DNA of 64,000 nt from an uncultured Phycisphaerales bacterium (lineage in GTDB: Bacteria; Planctomycetota; Phycisphaerae; Tepidisphaerales; Tepidisphaeraceae). The notes below the pieces were generated by a model. It was not told the origin of the DNA and made no database searches. It worked only from the letters and a program-made list of their open reading frames with translations. Where the stretch lies: NCBI GenBank assembly GCA_963755915.1, contig CAVWLP010000002.1, positions 1,024,001-1,088,000 of the forward strand. Direction: 5' to 3'. Position 1 is the stretch's first letter. Each line of letters begins with the position of its first letter. A program made the translations under genes and the position numbers. This document shows positions 25,285 to 38,295 of the stretch, one piece after another.

Positions 25285-26641
25285 TGTTTTGTTCCAGGAC
25301 ATAGATAACACCTCTCTCAGGACATAGGTAACACTTTTTGTGTGCTGTGCCGAGCCGGAGGGAGCGCAGCGACCGGAGGCTCGGCACAGCACACAACTCG
25401 CCGACGGCCTCGGCTGATTTCCTTCAGATTGACGCCCGCCACTGTTTGTCTGGCATAGACCACGGCCATTATTCCATCCGCCGCGGTCAACCGAATCGCT
25501 ACCGTCTCGCCCGCAAAGGCAATGCCCAAACGCCACTCGATGCTCCGGAAGGCGAACAGCCCATTGCGATCCACCTTTCTCACCTGGTCACCGGCAAGGT
25601 ACTCCACCTTGAGATCAGGCTCGTAAGCCCGAGGACTTTTGCCGTAGCGGCTGGCCGGAACCGCCAGACCCAACGCCTCGTGGGGACGCACGCAATTGTA
25701 CTGCTCACGCCAGGGGTCGAAATGCTTCTGGGCATCAGCCATATTGGCCAGCGGCTGACGCATCAGCAGCTCCTCTTTAAGCGTTCGATGCAGACGCTCG
25801 TCCTTGCCTTGTGTTTGCGGGTGACGCGGACGGCCGTGACATACTCCCACGTTCTGACGCAACAGCCACAGACCCAAACGCGTGTACCCTTGCCGTTCCT
25901 GCCCATGCCAGGTGCCCCACGGAGGACCGTTGTCGCACAAAATCCTCAGCGGCAGGCCATTTTGCTGGAATAGTCGCACCAATGCGGGCTTCACATCCTG
26001 CTCGGTCTCACCCGTGCATGCCTGCAGGCAAAGACAATAACGTGAGTGATCATCCAGCACCGTCAGGGCATGGCAACGCCGCCCGTTGCCCAAGGCGAAA
26101 TGTCCCTTGAAGTCCATCTGCCAAAGGTCATTGGGCTGATCGTGCTCAAAGCGTTGAAACGCCCGGTGCTGTGATGATCGAGCCGGATCGATCAGTCCAC
26201 CGCGAAATAAAATACGCCCGATCGTGCTCACCGCAGGCAACGTCGCCGGATCCCGACCCTGATTCTCCAGCAGCTTCCTCAGCTTGCGGCCTCCCCACAC
26301 CGGATGCTTCATGCGAAGCCTCACAACCGCCTGCCTCATCCGGCCGTCCACCTGTGCGGGACTGGCGTGCGGGCGACGCGAACGATCCAACAATCCCGCC
26401 TGACCCTCGGCACGATAACGCCGGAGCCATTTGTAACCACAGCGCCGGCTGATTCCGAACCGTCGGCAAAGCGCTGCCAGGTTAGCATCCGCCCGCATAG
26501 CCAGTTGCACAAACTCACCGCGAACTTCGTTCGTCACACATTCCTTCCAGGGCATCGGCCTCCTTTTTGGCCGTGATACCCAAAATGAAATGTGTTACCT
26601 ATGTCCTGAGAGACCTGTTACCCATGTCTCCGGTCTATACA
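25285..26641 (-). mobile_element. IS481-family insertion sequence
   Basis: TGT...ACA ends; ~50-bp imperfect IRs, each with two GACAT(A/G)G(G/A)TAACA boxes. Confidence 0.92.
25317..26555 (-). CDS. IS481 transposase (HTH + rve)
   Basis: MPWKE, LCRRFGISR, WQMDFKG, DDHSR, DNG, PQTQGKDER, RPHEAL motifs. Confidence 0.96.
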   Translation of the reverse strand: MPWKECVTNEVRGEFVQLAMRADANLAALCRRFGISRRCGYKWLRRYRAEGQAGLLDRSRRPHASPAQVDGRMRQAVVRLRMKHPVWGGRKLRKLLENQGRDPATLPAVSTIGRILFRGGLIDPARSSQHRAFQRFEHDQPNDLWQMDFKGHFALGNGRRCHALTVLDDHSRYCLCLQACTGETEQDVKPALVRLFQQNGLPLRILCDNGPPWGTWHGQERQGYTRLGLWLLRQNVGVCHGRPRHPQTQGKDERLHRTLKEELLMRQPLANMADAQKHFDPWREQYNCVRPHEALGLAVPASRYGKSPRAYEPDLKVEYLAGDQVRKVDRNGLFAFRSIEWRLGIAFAGETVAIRLTAADGIMAVVYARQTVAGVNLKEISRGRRRVVCCAEPPVAALPPARHSTQKVLPMS

Positions 26642-26729: not shown

Positions 26730-27932
26730 TCACACGATCCGCTCAACCGCCTCCGGTGTACTGTCGCTCTCCATCCCCGAATCCCCACCCTTCCTCACCT
26801 CAAGATTCTCCCTCGACCTCCTCCGATACTGCCTAGGACTCAGCCCAAACCTTTCCTGAAACGCCGTGCTAAGCTGCCGCGTCTCCTTAAACCCGCAAGC
26901 ATCCGCGATCTCCCGCACCGGCCGATCCGTCCCCGCCAGCAGCAGCCGCGCACGCTCAATCTGCACCCGCCGGATTTCCTGGTAAGGCGATCTCCCCAGC
27001 GCCTTGCGAAACCGCATCTCCAGCGATCGCCGCGAGAGTGCCGTCCGCGCCAGCAAATCTTCCACGCTGATATCCCTACCTCCCTGGTCCCGGATGAACC
27101 GCATGACGGACGCCACCTCCCCATCCCCCAGCGCGATCACATCCGTCGATCGCCTGGTGATCACCTCCCGCGGCGGAATCAAAATCGGTTTTGCCGGCGC
27201 CGCTTCCCCCGCGATCAACCGCGCCAGCAGCGCCGCCGCTTCATACCCGATCTGTTCCGTATTCAGCCGAATGCTCGACAGCCTCACCCCCGAAAGCTCG
27301 CATTGAATGTCATCGTTATCCACCCCCAGCACCGCCACATCATCCGGCACAATCGCGCCGTTCCGAACCACTTCCCGCACGATCTCCCGCGCAAACGCGT
27401 CGTTGTAACAAAAAATCCCCAGCGGCCGCGGCAGCGATCTCAGCACCTCCTCGCGCTGCAGCGCCGAATCCTCCCCCGACATATCCATCGCCTGACACGA
27501 ATACGGCGCCACCGCCTCGCAAAACGCGTCCCGCCTGATCCGGCAGCACTCCAGCTCAAACGGCCCGCAAAACGCGAAGCTCCGCAAATGCCGCTCTTCC
27601 AGAAAATATCGCGCCGCCATCCGACCCGTCGCAACGTCATCGGGAAAAACCCCCGGCAATCCCGCCTCCGGATTCAAAATATTCGCGACATTCACCGCCG
27701 GCTTCCCCATCTGGATGAGGAAGTCCGCCTGCCCCCGATCCTTGATCTGGATGATGAACCCGTCGAAATCGTCCTTCGTCAGGCTCCGCGAAAAATCCCA
27801 GTCCGACATCGGATTGAAATCAAAGTCCCAGTTCCCATGGATCTTCGCGAAGTCCGCAATCCCGCGCAGAATCCCCCGGCTATACGCGTACGCAATGTTC
27901 GCACAAAGTCGGATTCGCAGGTTTTCAGCCAT
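26730..27932 (-). CDS. XylR-type regulator (periplasmic-binding-like domain + AraC HTH)
   Basis: VPDDVAVLGVDND, LSSI, RRSTD, SRRSLEMRF motifs; C-terminal AraC HTH. Confidence 0.92.
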   Translation of the reverse strand: MAENLRIRLCANIAYAYSRGILRGIADFAKIHGNWDFDFNPMSDWDFSRSLTKDDFDGFIIQIKDRGQADFLIQMGKPAVNVANILNPEAGLPGVFPDDVATGRMAARYFLEERHLRSFAFCGPFELECCRIRRDAFCEAVAPYSCQAMDMSGEDSALQREEVLRSLPRPLGIFCYNDAFAREIVREVVRNGAIVPDDVAVLGVDNDDIQCELSGVRLSSIRLNTEQIGYEAAALLARLIAGEAAPAKPILIPPREVITRRSTDVIALGDGEVASVMRFIRDQGGRDISVEDLLARTALSRRSLEMRFRKALGRSPYQEIRRVQIERARLLLAGTDRPVREIADACGFKETRQLSTAFQERFGLSPRQYRRRSRENLEVRKGGDSGMESDSTPEAVERIV

Positions 27933-28435
27933 AAACCTCGACGTTGCGTATATTGTGAACATATTAGCAGCTTTTTGCACTGTCGCGAGCATACCCCAAC
28001 ATTTTCTAAGGAATATTCCCCCCAACTTATTGCCGGAAAACACGTTATCGGCTGTTAATCCCCCGAATCCGGGTTACTGCCCGACTCGCGTTCTGATACT
28101 TTTGCCGTTCGTGAGGTCTCTACGTTTTTTGCCGCTCGCCTTCCTCGTCGGACGAGAGGGTTTCGTCTTCTTCCTCCCGTTCCTTCTGGCCTGCATTTTC
28201 ATTCATTTAGTAGTTCGCGCCGCCCGGGGTTGATCGAAACCTCAGCCAAATCAGCAGCCAAAATTCTCGAACTTCTCCCCCGACTTTCTTCCCAACACCT
28301 CACAGCCGCCCCGAACGTCACCGGGGCAGCCATGTGTTATCGCGGCGGAACCGCGTTTTATAATCGCATGAAAGGCCATCTCCCTGCCGGAAGTTAACAT
28401 TCCGGTTTTGGTGTCATTCACACAAGGAGATAGCC

Positions 28436-29635
28436 ATGAAGTTATACGACAAGGTAGTTCAGGTAGGGCTGGACGTCCATCGGAAGTTCTCGTCCGCCAG
28501 TCTGCGCGACGCTTCCGGGAAGGTCATTGCTCGCGAACGCCTGGATCACCTGGATCGCCAAAAGCTTCGAGAGCGAATCGCTCAGTGGCCGCGAGGCACG
28601 CCGGTGATCCTGGAAGCGACATTTGGCTGGGGATGGCTCAGCGATGAGTTGCAGATTTTGAACATGCAGCCCCACCTGGCCTCGAGCCGCAAAGTGGCGG
28701 CATGGCGGGAAGGACGCGGGATCGCCAAGAGCAACAAGGTCGATGCCGACCTGCTCAGTGAACTCTGGAACGAAAAACCGATATTTAAGCGAGGCATCAT
28801 GAAGCGCTGGTGGGAAGTCTGGCTGGCCCCACGCGAGATTCGTGATCAGCGGGAGCTGCTGCGCCATCGGATGACCCTCGTTCAGGCTCAAACGCAGTTG
28901 AAAAATCGCATTCACGCGACGCTGCACCGCCATGGAATCGTCAGCGAGCTCACCGACCTCTTCGGTGTGCAGGGCCGGCGTTTCCTGTCGCTGCTCACCG
29001 AGGACAAGACCCTGAGCCTCTCAGGACGCCAGACGCTCAAGGAAGATCTCATGCTGCTGGATTCTCTGCGTCGCCTGATCGCACGGGCCACCCGCCGGTT
29101 CCGCGCGACCATGAAACGATCGGAGATCGGCCAGCGCCTGATGACCGTGCCGGGCATCTCCACCGTGCTGGGATATACGCTGGTCGCCGAGATCGGCCGA
29201 ATCGATCGTTTCTCCTCCAGTCGATGCCTGCTCCAATACAGCCTGCTGGCGCCGCAGGCCGACGACAGCGGAGAAGATCGCGATGCCAAGCCCATCGGCC
29301 GCCGACTTGGTCACGCCGGTCGCACTACCCTTCAGTGGGCCTTTATTCAGGCCGCCCACTCGGCAGTGCAAAGGGACGCTTTTTTGCGAGAACTTTTCAA
29401 TCGCCGTACCAACAACGGCAAACAGGACCGCGGTCGCGGCTACATCACCGTCGCCAACCGCATATGTCGGATCGTCTATTCAATGTGGAACAACAACCAG
29501 GATTATCAGGAGGTGCCGCCCCCAAGACCGGGAAGCAAAAGACATAAGGAACTGATCTCGTCCGGAAGTGGGCCAGCCCTGGCTCGAATTGGCCATGAGC
29601 CCGAAGCAATTCAGGCTCGAGAGGCCACGTTATAA
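28436..29635 (+). CDS. IS110 RuvC-like DEDD recombinase/transposase
   Basis: VGLDVH, ILEAT, KSNKVDA, TVPGI, AEIG, LAPQADDSG (catalytic Ser motif), VANR; AAGGAG RBS. Confidence 0.96.
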   Translation: MKLYDKVVQVGLDVHRKFSSASLRDASGKVIARERLDHLDRQKLRERIAQWPRGTPVILEATFGWGWLSDELQILNMQPHLASSRKVAAWREGRGIAKSNKVDADLLSELWNEKPIFKRGIMKRWWEVWLAPREIRDQRELLRHRMTLVQAQTQLKNRIHATLHRHGIVSELTDLFGVQGRRFLSLLTEDKTLSLSGRQTLKEDLMLLDSLRRLIARATRRFRATMKRSEIGQRLMTVPGISTVLGYTLVAEIGRIDRFSSSRCLLQYSLLAPQADDSGEDRDAKPIGRRLGHAGRTTLQWAFIQAAHSAVQRDAFLRELFNRRTNNGKQDRGRGYITVANRICRIVYSMWNNNQDYQEVPPPRPGSKRHKELISSGSGPALARIGHEPEAIQAREATL

Positions 29636-29730
29636 TTGGGCCGCCCGCGCCGGATGAGATCATGTGCCGCTCGGCCAAACGCTGTTGATCGGGCCCGGCC
29701 AGCACGAATGGATATATGGACCGCCGAGAG
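29553..29730 (+). ncRNA. Candidate bridge/seekRNA
   Basis: Hand-folded long hairpin 29553-29662 with internal-loop strands GGCTCGAAT and ACGTTATAAT matching the target; ATGGATA (29708-14) matches the element right end. Boundaries are inferred. Confidence 0.7.
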
Positions 29731-29934
29731 GCCAGTCACCAGCCGGCAGACGGACGAAGAGGTCTCGGAATGAAAAAGAAGTAACCGCTTTTCGCGAGGA
29801 GAATTTTTTTGTTGATCGGGGAAGCCTTTCATGGATATTCGAGCCCCCGCCTCTTCTCGTCACCCAGACCGTAACCGAAAATACTCTTCCTTCTTCTCGA
29901 TCTAAATGTCTGACGATCTCGCCCGCCTATTCAT

Positions 29935-32865
29935 TTACGCAATCTTCTGCCGCGTCTCCCGCCGCTCTTCACCCAGCTTCGGCCCCAAATACTCCCCCGT
30001 ATAACTCCCTCTCACCTGCGCCACCTCTTCCGGCGTCCCCGCCGCCACCACTCGCCCGCCCCCCTCGCCCCCTTCCGGACCCATATCAATAATCCAATCC
30101 GCGCACTTAATCACATCCAAATTATGCTCGATCACCAGCACCGTATTCCCCAAATCCGCCAGCCGATTCAGCACGTTCAAAAGATTATTGAATATCCGCA
30201 AAATGCAACCCCGTCGTCGGCTCATCCAGCACATAAAGCGTATGCCCCGTCGCCGATTTCCCCAGCTCCGTCGCCAGCTTCACCCGCTGCGCCTCCCCGC
30301 CGGATAAGTTGCGTGCTCGGCTGCCCCAGCTTCACATAACTGAGCCCCACATCATTCAGTGCCTTCAGCAAGCTGCGCAATCCGCGGAAAATTCTCAAAG
30401 AAAACCAGCGCCTCCTCCACCGTCATGCTCAGCACATCCGCGATGTTCTTCCCCCGGTAATGAATCTCCAGCGTCTCCGCGTTGTACCGCGTCCCATGGC
30501 ACACTTCGCAATCCACATAAACATCCGGCAAAAAATGCATCTCGATGCACTTGTTCCCCTGCCCCTGGCAGGCTTCGCACCGCCCACCCTTCACGTTAAA
30601 GCTGAACCGCCCCGCTTCATACCCCCGAATCTTCGCTTCCCGCGTCTTCGCAAAAACCTTGCGAATATCGTCGAACACGCCGGTATACGTCGCCGGATTC
30701 GATCGCGGCGTCCGCCCGATCGGGCTCTGATCAATCTCAATCACCTTGTCGATCTTATTGACCCCATTCACCGCCTTATGCACCCCCGCCTTCACCTTCG
30801 AAGCATAAAGCTTCCGCTTAAGCACCGGCAAAAGCGTCTGATTCACCAGCGTCGATTTCCCCGACCCGCTCACCCCCGTCACGCAAACCAGCCCCCCCAG
30901 CGGAATCCGCACGTCGATATCCTTGAGATTGTTCTGCCGGCACCCCCGCAGCTCCAGCGCATTCTTATCCGGATTCACCGGCCGCCGCGCCTGCGGCGTC
31001 ACGATCGCATATTCCCCCGTCAGATATTTAATCGTCGTACTATGCGTATTCTCCAAAACATCCGGCATCGGCCCCTGCGCACACCACCTGCCCCCCATGC
31101 GCCCCGCCGCCGGCCCGATATCGATCAGATAATCCGCCGCCCGGATGCACTCCTCATCATGCTCCACCATCATGACCGTATTCCCGATATCCTGCAGCCG
31201 TCTCAGTGTCCGAATCAGCCGCGTGTTATCGCGCTGATGCAGCCCGATCGTCGGCTCATCGAGCACATAACACACCCCACCAGCCCGCTCCCCACCTGCG
31301 TCGCCAGCCGGATGCGCTGCGCCTCGCCGCCAGAAAGCGTCGCCGTCTTTCGATCCAGCGTCAGATAGCCCAGCCCCACATCCACCATGAACCCCAGCCG
31401 CGACGAAATCTCCCGCACGATCGGCTCCGCGATCGCCGCCCCTTCTTCGCTCAAGCGCAGATTCTCAAAAAACCGCTTCGCCGTCTCGACGGTCAAACTC
31501 GAAACATCATGAATGCTATACCCCGGCAGCTTAATCCCCTCCGCCCCCGGCAGCGGCGCCGCCACCGGCCCAGGCGTATCACTGTGCAACCGCACCGCCA
31601 GCGCTTCCTTCTTCAGCCTCGTCCCCCCGCAAACCTCGCACGGCTGCTCTGACATATATTGATGCAGCCGCGTCTTCACAAACTCGCTCTCGGTATTATC
31701 AAACCGCCTCTGCAAATTCGGCAGCACCCCCTCAAACCACGTCCCCGTCCCTCCATCCCCGCGCTTCTCCGTCCCCTCCATCAAAATCTGCTGAACCTTC
31801 TTCGGAATGTCCTTGAACGGCTGCGTATACGAAATCCCAAAATCCCGGCAAAATTGCCGCAGCACCCGGCTGTAAAAAATATTCATCCGCTTGCCGTTTT
31901 TCCGCCACGCCTCAATCGCCCCGTTCTCCAGCGACAGCGACTGGATCGGGAACGATCAGCTCCGGATCAAACTCGAACTTCGTCCCCAGCCCATGACACG
32001 CCAAACACGCCCCATGCGGACTGTTAAAGCTGAATATCCGCGGCTCCAATTCCGGCAGCGATACATGCGGATGATCCGGACACGCAAATTTCTCGCTGAA
32101 CGTCTGGTCCGACCACCCCTCCCCCTCCTTCTGCACCGTCACCACAACCAACCCCTGCGAAAGCTTCAGCGCCGTCTCAATGCTGTCCGCCAGCCGCGAC
32201 CGAACCTCCGGCTTCAGCACGATCCGATCGACAATCGCCTCAATGGTATGAACCTTCGTCTTCGTCAGCGCCGGCGGCTTCATTTCCCGCCAGTTCCAGA
32301 ATCTCCCCATCCACCCGCGCTCGCACAAACCCCTGCTTGCTTAATCGCCCCAAACGTCTCCTTGTGTTCCCCCTTCTGCCCCTTGATCAGCGGCGACAGG
32401 ATCATCACCTTCGTCCCGGCCGGATACTTCATGACCGCATCCGACAATCTGCGACGGCGACTGACTCGCGATCTCCCTCCCGCAAATCCAGCAATGCGGC
32501 GTCCCCGCCCGCGCCAGCAGCACCCGCAAATAATCATAAATCTCCGTCGTCGTCGCGACGATACTCCGCGGATTCGAAGAAGCCGACCTCTGCTCAATCG
32601 CAATCGTCGGCGGCAACCCCTCGATCTCATCAATATCCGGCTTCTGAAGCTGCTCCAGAAACTGCCGCGCATATGCCGACAGCGACTCCACATATTTCCT
32701 CTGCCCCTCCGCATAAACCGTATCAAACGCCAGCGTCGATTTCCCCGACCCGCTCAGCCCCGTGACGACCACGAGCTGATCGCGCGGAATCTCCACGTTG
32801 ATATTCTTAAGATTGTGCTCGCGCGCTCCCTTGATCCGAATGAACTTTTGTTCTGCGTTAGCCAA
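29935..32865 (-). CDS. uvrA: Excinuclease ABC subunit A (several frameshifts)
   Basis: [62 protein letters not shown] motifs, spread over successive frames. Confidence 0.95.
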
Positions 32866-33413: not shown

Positions 33414-33519
33414 TCGCATTTATCTCCGAGGGTCGCGAAAAGCCGCGCGAAAGATCCCCGAATCCCCACCACCCTCCCATAACAAAGCCGTGGGTGCTTG
33501 CACCCACGGGAACCAAGCC

Positions 33520-33632
33520 CCCAAAGCCGTCCCGAACGTCACCAGGGGAGCCGTGTGCCCTCGCAGCGGAACCGCGTGTTACATTCGAGCCACCGCCACT
33601 TCTCGTCACCAAAACCGTAACCGAAAATACTC
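33520..33632 (+). repeat. Repeat family A, copy 3 (empty; core ACA)
   Basis: Aligns to copy 1; preceded by a CCGTGGGTGC-TT-GCACCCACGG hairpin (33488-33509). Confidence 0.9.
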
Positions 33633-33755
33633 TTTATCCTCTTCCCCCCGAAACCCCCTTACCAAAAGAAGATTTAGGCAAGAATGAAAATACCAATCTC
33701 CCCGTCCTTTAATCCCCTTGTCCCCATCCCCCCCGACCCGTAGCATCTCGCCAAT

Positions 33756-38256: not shown

Positions 38257-38295
38257 TGATCCACGCTATTCTATCCCCATTCGAGCCCAATTTAA

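Follow-up and report, generated by a model that had tools for sequence, protein, structure and literature searches.

The insertion sequence and its target repeat

The window, a stretch of 64,000 nucleotides of contig CAVWLP010000002.1, carries on its + strand an insertion sequence of the IS1111 group (IS110 family) at positions 28363-29837 (1475 bp) with TA as the core. Since ATA occurs both in the left flank and in the right end, the element boundary is ambiguous over as many as 3 bases. A left subterminal inverted repeat (CATGAAAGGC, 28367-28376, + strand), which is kept in relatives, is the reverse complement of the 10-bp right subterminal inverted repeat (GCCTTTCATG, 29824-29833, + strand). 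Four bases lie outside each repeat, an arrangement that fits the IS1111 definition of repeats of 7-17 bp with short terminal extensions.

Four copies of the element are present in the genome, identical across 28341-29843 and with diverging flanks, which indicates recent activity. All four occupy one and the same point of a dispersed repeat of ~130 bp, without target duplication. The left half of this target repeat (28291-28362) has at its end a terminator-like hairpin (28341-28355) with a T run and ATA after it, and the first 8 bases of the right half (29838-29895), together with the preceding A, are those that the 5' loop strand described below would read. Comparison with uninterrupted repeat copies, of which the genome holds at least 40 with the left half joined straight to the sequence of 29838-29895, showed that the flanks are joined directly at empty sites, with the shared ATA alone between them. 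A scan of 28250-29900 for terminators and promoters listed no promoter, nor did it place a terminator at the element's right end.

The transposase

The transposase open reading frame (ORF; 28436-29635, + strand) encodes 399 residues, with codons 373-399 lying within the RNA hairpin. Pfam matches were obtained to DEDD_Tnp_IS110 (PF01548, E = 7.4e-9) and Transposase_20 (PF02371, E = 1.6e-13), giving an N-terminal DEDD (RuvC-like) and a C-terminal Transposase_20 domain. Residues D13, E60 and D103 are invariant across 26 relatives. The IS1111 motif P----S(t)G was located in the C-terminal domain, where P273, S278 and G279 are invariant in 6 relatives; across the 26 relatives P273 is invariant and G279 is retained in at least 90%. 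The folded body of the protein ends near residue 353 and is followed by a short basic linker leading into the hairpin codons. The tail is predicted to be disordered, the AlphaFold2 model having a pLDDT below 50 for residues 370-399. The closest relative, L052, encodes a protein that is 83% identical.

Fold and conservation of the hairpin

A bridge/seekRNA-like hairpin had been drawn by hand over the 3' end of this gene in a first-pass annotation, whose coordinates and strings are all present in the sequence and whose fold was reproduced by the minimum free energy (MFE) fold of 29540-29740. The candidate target-binding hairpin (seekRNA or bridge RNA; 29553-29662, + strand) is built from basal arms TGATCTCGTCCGG (29553-65) and CCGGATGAGATCA (29650-62), which form 13 pairs including one G.U, a second stem (29568-79/29638-48), a 10x10 internal loop (29580-89 and 29628-37) and an apical hairpin (29590-29627). 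The MFE of 29540-29740 is -88.7 kcal/mol (z = -3.78), and an equally good fold was obtained in 0 of 200 shuffles. RNAalifold applied to 16 relatives gave 28 consensus pairs, 9 of them with compensatory changes, and the G.U pairs of the consensus hairpin hold on the + strand alone. A covariance model built from these 16 relatives scored 95.8 bits on the + strand and 30.3 bits on the - strand at the hairpin of this element, and matched 41 loci on the + strand (34 of them distinct), every one at the 3' end of a transposase gene; these relatives do not count as independent cases, and among them are several decayed copies or MAG contigs.

An Rfam scan of 28000-30200 (E <= 1) listed no relevant family, and a match to Ysr276 inside the coding sequence was set aside as a chance match. 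In one metatranscriptome run 6% of the sampled words were present, and its contigs, 90-95% alike, come from a relative; one of them, 448 nt long, spans 29443-29886 with guide changes of the L052 type. As contigs, they are evidence neither of a transcript nor of where it would begin and end.

Target guides in the internal loop

The 5' strand of the internal loop (UGGCUCGAAU, 29580-29589, + strand) lies inside the ORF. Within it, GGCTCGAAT (29581-89) is the exact reverse complement of ATTCGAGCC (29837-45), a match of 9 bases across the element junction that had already been claimed on first reading. At least 6 contiguous flank bases are matched by the guide in 21 of 29 distinct cognate guide/flank pairs, compared with 4.9% of 802 non-cognate pairs (the other 8 of the 29 match over fewer than 6 bases), and the co-change of 5' guide and right flank spans 13 different flank hexamers. 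Retention of one loop sequence by homologs with different targets had been named as the observation that would speak against a guide; relatives inserted in different targets were found to have different 5' strands, matching their own flanks. The guide of L052 differs at the base that separates ATTCGAG from ATACGAG, its flank shows the same difference, and both variants are present among the repeat copies of the genome under study. Judged by this co-change, the 5' loop strand is the guide for the top strand on the right target side, and it changes with the flank among relatives. The window contains four occurrences of ATTCGAGCC against 1.17 expected, three of which are the guide, the junction and an empty target-repeat copy at 33583, and the fourth, at 38279, lies outside any repeat copy.

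The 3' strand of the loop (CGUUAUAAUU, 29628-29637, + strand) has the sense of the left flank (TTA), the TA core and the first two left-end bases, and pairing with the bottom strand would therefore be expected; it also holds the stop of the ORF. The first-pass annotation had taken GTTATA (29629-34) within it as left target side plus core. The TTATA portion does match, giving 5 bases including the core in this element, but the G of GUUAUA faces T in the 4 occupied sites, and the left-side guide match is weak. Among relatives, the mean run matching the left flank beyond the core is 1.79 bases versus 0.88 in non-cognate pairs, and the base preceding the core agrees with the left flank in 31 of 33 distinct relatives. 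The TAA of this strand is kept in most relatives, with TAT in seven. Of the two matches, which occupy opposite strands of a single internal loop, the top-strand one stands 5' of the bottom-strand one. According to the available text of Siddiquee et al. 2024 (PMC11187229), this is the order found in IS1111 seekRNAs, that of IS621 being reversed; the earlier likening to the target-binding loop of IS621 holds as to a guide loop of an IS110-family RNA, with the guide order being of the IS1111 type.

Downstream strand, distal parts and a putative circle-junction promoter

The hairpin is followed by a second hairpin (29663-29703, + strand), whose length varies between relatives, and by a conserved strand (29704-29717, + strand) containing AUGGAUA (29708-14), which equals the last right-end bases including the core, the next base being equal to the first flank base. 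ATGGATA recurs at 29831-37, in agreement with its earlier reading as right end plus core, and in relatives ATGGATA or ATGAATA tracks a right end of GGATA or GAATA, with T, A or G as the next base, like the flank. By this tracking, 29704-17 is a candidate donor-side guide with a one-base handshake. A guide to the left end was sought by eye, both as a reverse complement of the left end and as covariation with its variable fifth base; neither the linker that follows the hairpin, nor the second hairpin, nor the region before AUGGAUA showed anything convincing.

A third hairpin (29718-29737, + strand) has a GAGA cap, and its GGGC/GCCC pairing alternates with GGAC/GTCC in relatives. The consensus fold of 29650-29776 from 15 relatives was poor because the second hairpin varies in length: no usable consensus was obtained for that hairpin, and the outer pairs of the third hairpin alone were recovered. 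A distal near-repeat of the 3' arm of the target-binding hairpin (29750-29761, + strand) may be an alternative partner of the 5' arm if a longer RNA exists. Where the 5' arm has changed from C to T, the distal arm has changed from G to A in 8 of 10 elements, the proximal arm staying G, a pattern that could stem from a single evolutionary event. Further downstream, a -35-like hexamer (29812-29817, + strand) belongs to a putative promoter that would need the right and left ends to be joined in a circle before it is complete. With the ends of this element abutted in silico, the -35-like hexamer matches at 4/6 positions, the spacer is 16 and the -10-like hexamer across the junction matches at 5/6; both hexamers match at 4/6 or more in 24 of 26 distinct relatives.

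Overlap of the ORF with the RNA

The stop codon of the transposase (TAA, 29633-29635, + strand) lies inside the 3' loop strand, where it consists of the guide's copy of the core TA and of the left end's first A, and the hairpin is co-encoded with the protein tail, as had been recognised in the first-pass annotation. The hairpin begins 80 nt upstream of the stop in this element and 48-102 nt before the stop across the clade. Sorted by stop position, the 34 distinct elements comprise 24 with the stop in the apical hairpin, 5 with it in the 3' loop strand, 1 with it in the 5' loop strand and 4 with it further upstream. The placement of both target guides in the coding sequence had been called unusual, and this is so for the pair, both guides lying inside the ORF in only 5 of the 41 loci, but not for the 5' guide, which does so in 29 of the 34 distinct relatives.

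The overlapped codons evolve, by their substitution pattern, like RNA rather than protein. Entropy in the overlapped part is 0.66, 0.62 and 0.52 at first, second and third codon positions, whereas in the gene body it is 1.23-1.40 at third positions and 0.59-0.95 at first and second positions. The hairpin is also read in different frames, giving SSGSGPA... in the lineage of this element and SRPGTGQP... in the majority. As had been foreseen, a change of target alters the protein tail; the tail varies naturally among relatives, and on that natural variation it tolerates such changes. The tail peptide is most likely tolerated rather than needed. Counter to a merely tolerated tail, the conserved frame and linker lengths in multiples of 3 suggest selection on the entry of the ORF into the RNA.

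We consider it highly probable that 29553-29662 encodes the target-binding hairpin of a guide RNA belonging to an active insertion sequence of the IS1111 group, and that the overlapped codons are shaped by the RNA and their tail is tolerated. The short left-side match, the failure to find a left-end guide, the 8 cognate pairs with fewer than 6 matched bases, and the sub-variant preference and well-matched but unoccupied repeat copies described below speak against this reading. By analogy with the family, the RNA would be made as the 3' part of a transposase transcript that starts at the promoter formed by the abutting ends in the excised circle, and the DEDD transposase would then bind it. Sequence and covariation show that the 5' strand of the internal loop pairs with the target's top strand, beginning at the core A and reaching into the right flank, and that the downstream strand (29704-17) is a copy of the right end and core plus a single flank base. 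The ORF runs past the folded body and the basic linker into the hairpin, its own stop TAA doubling as core and handshake base of the 3' guide. In most relatives the ORF terminates in the apical loop. The tail peptide differs in sequence whenever the guide differs, and a change of reading frame from one lineage to another alters it as well.

A further proposal, which we regard as tentative, is that the overlap is functional, the stop in the hairpin coupling transposase synthesis to the folding, binding or processing of the seekRNA, for example through cis-preference, through a feedback in which the transposase binds its own mRNA at the 3' end, or through a choice by which an mRNA is either translated or cut to release the seekRNA. 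The translation stop inside the guide hairpin, whether in the apical loop or at a stop codon made from the recombination core, might then be a selected feature of the clade: the seekRNA would be unfolded by every round of transposase synthesis, and an mRNA whose seekRNA was bound or excised would be blocked or destroyed, giving dosage control and cis-preference, a scheme that we hold to be possible at a similarly low level of confidence. Consistent with a functional overlap, the overlap is clade-wide: 30 of the 34 distinct elements have their stop within the hairpin, and the apical loop is its usual place. Stops are depleted in the coding frame from the conserved RPG motif to where the 5' guide ends, with 4 in that frame versus 18 and 20 in the other two, counted over 32 elements. 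The linker length is divisible by 3 in 23 of 29 elements, these 23 frame-keeping linkers having 15 different lengths from 3 to 105 nt. The seekRNA is moreover inferred in the available text of PMC11187229 to be co-transcribed with tnp and then processed. However, 4 relatives (two of them probably decayed copies) stop ahead of the RNA, the lineage of this element still has four identical copies with another frame and another stop position, and the overlapped codons bear no coding signature. In addition, the guide of IS5075 lies ~97 nt past the stop and the studied seekRNAs lie downstream of tnp (PMC11187229, in the text available); therefore, the chemistry does not need the overlap.

It is improbable that the tail peptide encoded by the RNA (SRPGTGQP..PMV in most relatives) is itself a functional protein motif whose conservation the nucleotides merely mirror. 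The peptide is kept in the 25 distinct elements of the majority frame, and the frame is maintained; third codon positions are nevertheless no freer than first and second ones, the observed changes are transitions that keep pairs as G.U or A-U yet alter the amino acid, the lineage of this element reads the same RNA in another frame, and the tail is disordered by prediction. That the hairpin is a mere terminator, attenuator or REP-like palindrome with chance flank matches is scarcely credible, for although it is GC-rich and stable and matches of 5-6 bases are frequent by chance, the loop strand covaries with 13 different flank hexamers, the hairpin is not followed by a T run and is absent from the terminators listed by the scan of 28250-29900, and its position and architecture are those of an IS1111 seekRNA.

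Comparison with known systems

The IS1111-group seekRNAs studied by Siddiquee et al. 2024 (ISEc11, ISPa11, ISKpn4 and ISPst6; PMC11187229) share, as far as their available description extends, a DEDD transposase with Transposase_20, subterminal inverted repeats, an RNA on the 3' side of tnp and a loop with two strand matches overlapping at the insertion point. The same source also describes natural retargeting in relatives, a repeat element as target and a circle-junction promoter, the last being putative here. There the seekRNAs map downstream of tnp in a "non-coding region", whereas the hairpin reported here begins 80 nt upstream of the stop and one or both target guides are therefore codons. 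The transposase of this element differs from the studied members, as described there, in a 45-residue extension past the last helix, and its left-side match, unlike theirs, is short.

IS5075/IS4321 (IS1111 group; NZ_MH643790.1), which targets the inverted repeats of Tn21-type transposons, encodes a transposase ~27% identical across 89% of its length. It likewise has subterminal inverted repeats and a 3' segment in which, by eye, 9 bases complement the right flank, but its coding sequence (334 residues) extends only to locus position 1708, whereas the segment that matches the flank lies from 1805 onward, without overlap. The bridge RNA of IS621 (IS110 group; PMC11208160, PMC11208158) is alike, in the portions of these articles available, in that a second element reads the donor and in having handshake bases; its RNA comes from the left end upstream of the gene, with the reverse guide order and two clear loops (PMC11208160, same portions), whereas in this element the RNA overlaps the 3' end of the ORF and a left-end donor guide was not found.

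The guide-in-codons layout is common to the relatives and is not described for the studied family members in the available published texts. No statement of a guide within a recombinase ORF was found in the accessible parts of PMC11187229, PMC13604230 or PMC12288879 or in a wider literature search; the supplements of Siddiquee et al. (NCR sequences, long-seekRNA folds) and of Durrant et al. (extended data, tables) might contain an example. Interest in genome-editing tools has made RNA-guided IS110/IS1111 recombinases an object of mining, and the published descriptions and pipelines, in the parts available, seek the guide RNA in "non-coding ends" or intergenic sequence. Durrant et al. 2024 took 3' flanks with only 50 bp of coding sequence (PMC11208160, methods as available), and a 2026 preprint, according to its available text, clustered the intergenic sequences adjoining the recombinase gene. 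As the hairpin starts 48-102 nt before the stop in this clade, searches of non-coding ends or intergenic sequence would cut or miss it. A programmable guide can sit in codons, with two or three tail residues varying freely with the target, which makes a clean natural example of RNA constraint overriding protein constraint. If the overlap were regulatory, it would add a layer of control to RNA-guided recombinases. Engineers of such a system would have to provide the RNA in trans or else separate the tail from it.

Variants of the target repeat

Repeat copies of the ATTCGAG type hold all 4 insertions, and among 40 empty copies 15 carry ATTCGAG and 23 carry ATACGAG. The GCGTTTTATA sub-variant was present at all 4 insertions versus 3 of 40 empty copies (Fisher p = 2.6e-4), a preference for which the two loop strands give no explanation and which may be real specificity or come from gene conversion among the copies. 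AAACGC (29677-82), the reverse complement of GCGTTT in the left flank, was considered as its cause and found no support by eye from relatives L072 and L053. Among the unoccupied repeat copies, one (GTTATATTCGAGCC) matches both guides still better, and two are identical to the occupied sites.

Element, copies and target repeat

The transposase ORF (28436-29635, plus strand, 399 aa) contains the Pfam domains DEDD_Tnp_IS110 and Transposase_20, both of which are those of IS110-family transposases. When 28200-29900 was used to query the genome from which the window comes, four full copies of the element were identified, which upon alignment were identical over 28341-29843 and diverged farther out. 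The same search also returned short hits by the dozen to the left and right outer parts of the query, which adjoin each other at other places in the genome; for this reason, the flanks of the element were assigned as the two halves of a ~130-bp dispersed repeat, the junction being spanned by at least 40 uninterrupted copies. Repeat copies are located at 793-921 and 33513-33634, with the separated halves at 28291-28362 and 29838-29895 and at least 40 more in the genome; the family, which the element targets, is marked by a conserved hairpin and T run, with a TATA-like spacer at the centre. Comparison with the uninterrupted copies placed the element at 28363-29837, the boundary sliding by up to 3 bases because ATA is common to the left flank and the right end, and revealed insertion without target duplication. 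Subterminal inverted repeats of 10 bp are present at the element ends (28367-76 and 29824-33), and this anatomy is that of the IS1111 group.

A protein search found matches in 12 of 141 genomes of the same order, the window's own among them, and a scan of species-representative genomes yielded 59 loci, nearly all from MAGs of Phycisphaerae or other Planctomycetota. In the relative L032 (the same as L052), the left flank is the reverse complement of the locus's own right end and flank, joined at the subterminal repeat, owing either to recombination between inverted copies or to an artefact of MAG assembly.

Structure and conservation of the guide hairpin

The minimum-free-energy fold of 29540-29740 was the one drawn by hand in the first-pass annotation, all strings and coordinates of which were correct when checked against the sequence. 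It comprises the hairpin arms (29553-65 and 29650-62), a second stem (29568-79 and 29638-48), a 10x10 internal loop (29580-89 and 29628-37) and an apical hairpin (29590-29627), with z = -3.78 and none of 200 shuffles as stable. Read as its reverse complement, the 5' loop strand matches 29837-45, nine bases that comprise the element's last base and the start of the right flank. The 3' loop strand runs in the same sense as the final three left-flank bases, then the TA core, then the left end's first two bases. In GTTATA, the G that had been counted in the left-side match agrees with some empty copies of the repeat but fails at the four occupied sites, where TTATA matches. The top-strand match comes first in the hairpin, an order described in a passage of PMC11187229 for all IS1111 members tested and reversed in the IS110 type.

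Analysis of 16 well-aligning hairpin regions in RNAalifold gave 28 pairs, 9 of them with compensatory changes, and several G.U pairs of the consensus would be A.C on the opposite strand. The covariance model built from this alignment detected the hairpin on the plus strand at 41 loci, representing 34 distinct guide pairs, in every case at the 3' end of the transposase gene, and scored the window's hairpin at 95.8 bits on the plus strand versus 30.3 on the minus strand.

After the third hairpin, 29750-61 is a near-repeat of the guide hairpin's 3' arm, with the form CCGG..CGGACGAGA in relatives. T for C in the 5' arm is accompanied by A for G in this distal copy in 8 of 10 elements, the proximal arm keeping its G, which suggests an alternative long-range helix between the 5' arm and the distal near-repeat in a longer form of the RNA; this covariation may stem from one evolutionary event. 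The left end also has a hairpin with a T run behind it (28386-28406), located after the inverted repeat and ahead of the start codon; the segment preceding it (28380-28396) resembles the guide hairpin's 5' arm.

Covariation of guides and targets

Loop strands were taken per locus from the model alignment and junctions were defined by the conserved subterminal repeats. A right flank was present at 35 loci, giving 29 distinct guide/flank pairs, and in 21 of these at least 6 contiguous flank bases were common to the locus's own guide, compared with 4.9% of 802 non-cognate pairs, bearing out the earlier assignment of the 5' loop strand as the right-side target guide. The 21 matching pairs span 13 different flank hexamers, and the 8 weaker ones include copies that look rearranged or decayed (for instance L055, L059, L041 and L097). 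In the window's genome, ATTCGAG lies just right of the insertion point in 15 of 40 empty copies and at all four insertions, and ATACGAG in 23 of 40 empties; in the closest relative, L052 (protein 83% identical), the guide differs precisely at the position that distinguishes the two readings, giving ATACGAG instead of ATTCGAG, and the flank likewise has ATACGAG.

The left-side guide signal is weak: the mean matching flank run beyond the core was 1.79 in 33 distinct cognate pairs versus 0.88 in non-cognate pairs. The base immediately preceding the core nevertheless matches the left flank in 31 of 33, including the five cases other than G. In most relatives the 3' loop strand contains TAA, whose TA is the core and whose final A is the first base of the left end; seven have TAT. 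The donor strand AUGGAUA (29708-14) equals the element's right end, as had been read by eye, and becomes AUGAAUA in relatives with a GAATA right end, the next base being T, A or G in agreement with the first flank base. The aligned loci show covariation in three parts, namely the right-side guide, the base preceding the core and the donor strand.

The 22-bp left flank (28341-28362) is identical at all four insertions and corresponds to the GCGTTTTATA sub-variant, which just 3 of the 40 empty copies carry (Fisher p = 2.6e-4). This preference is not accounted for by the two loop strands and could reflect gene conversion among the copies or a further determinant of specificity.

Judged from sequence, the hairpin is real and its identification as an IS1111-type guide RNA is well supported. 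As in the rest of the family, the element would excise to a circle; with the ends abutted in silico, a promoter-like site was found in 24 of 26 distinct elements (-35 at 29812-17 in the window's element). The transposase gene and the RNA would be co-transcribed and then processed, the transposase would bind the RNA, the two loop strands would pair with the two target strands around TA, and strand exchange would follow.

Overlap of the transposase ORF and the guide RNA

The new point is the architecture, in which the target-reading half of the guide RNA lies within the transposase ORF, a layout that is conserved across a Planctomycetota clade. The element, its ends, its target, the conserved hairpin and the entry of the ORF into it can be read directly from the DNA. 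Stop positions were scored in the transposase frame for the 41 loci (34 distinct elements). The stop lies in the apical hairpin in 31 loci (24 distinct), in the 3' loop strand in five (five distinct: the window, L053, L054, L077 and L097), in the 5' loop strand in one (one distinct: L087, frame uncertain) and upstream of the RNA in four (four distinct: L065, L041, L089 and L039). In L065 and L041 the stop comes directly behind the conserved PGS motif, and these two are possibly decayed. The 5' guide is thus inside the ORF in 29 of the 34 distinct elements; inclusion of both guides, as initially described, holds for the window and is the rarer form among relatives.

Over the stretch that starts at the conserved RPG motif and finishes with the 5' guide, 4 stops were counted in the coding frame versus 18 and 20 in the other frames (32 distinct elements, two without an anchor having been dropped and three having a misplaced anchor), and the linker joining this motif to the RNA is between 3 and 105 nt long, 23 of 29 linkers having a length divisible by three. 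These counts show that the ORF stays open as far as the RNA. In relatives L052-L090, the C-terminal linker, located between the conserved PGS motif and the RNA, contains many Lys, Arg and Ser residues, is 1 to 35 codons long and is in frame in most elements.

Within the overlap, mean entropy was 0.66, 0.62 and 0.52 at codon positions 1, 2 and 3 (25 majority-frame elements), compared with up to 1.23-1.40 at third positions and 0.59-0.95 at first and second positions in the gene body, and the overlapped codons do not evolve as codons. The window's lineage (the window, L052 and L072) enters the RNA in another frame than most relatives, its tail reading SSGSGPALARIGHE versus SRPGTGQP..PMV, and the window's element has four identical copies despite this other-frame tail. 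AlphaFold2 (26 sequences) predicted the transposase body confidently (mean pLDDT 84.6; last helix 332-353), with pLDDT <50 for aa 370-399. Our reading is that the tail is translated and kept in frame, yet its sequence is dictated by the RNA, and that the two or three guide-encoded tail residues vary freely with the target.

Comparison with known elements and neighbouring genes

The seekRNA of studied IS1111 members is described in part of PMC11187229 as deriving from the non-coding region downstream of tnp, and a deletion of ISEc11 from base 1170 is said there to leave the transposase gene intact. In a passage of Durrant et al. (PMC11208160), IS1111 bridge RNAs are placed 'within the RE', and the 3' flanks searched take in 50 bp of CDS. 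No statement of a guide lying in the ORF was found in the text of the searched papers. In one plasmid copy of IS5075, the CDS (334 aa) runs to locus position 1708 and the 9-base right-flank complement starts at 1805, so that guide and ORF do not overlap, unlike in the window's element; its protein stops directly after the last helix, whereas the relatives add a C-terminal linker.

Upstream of the element, both on the minus strand, are an IS481-family transposase (25317-26555; HTH, LZ_Tnp_IS481 and rve domains) and an AraC-type regulator with a periplasmic-binding-protein domain (26730-28043). Directly downstream lies a uvrA-like gene (29935-31886, minus strand) broken into three or more ORF pieces that overlap or are out of frame, with the UvrA DNA-binding domain in 31215-31886; the breaks mark a pseudogene or else come from assembly indel errors.
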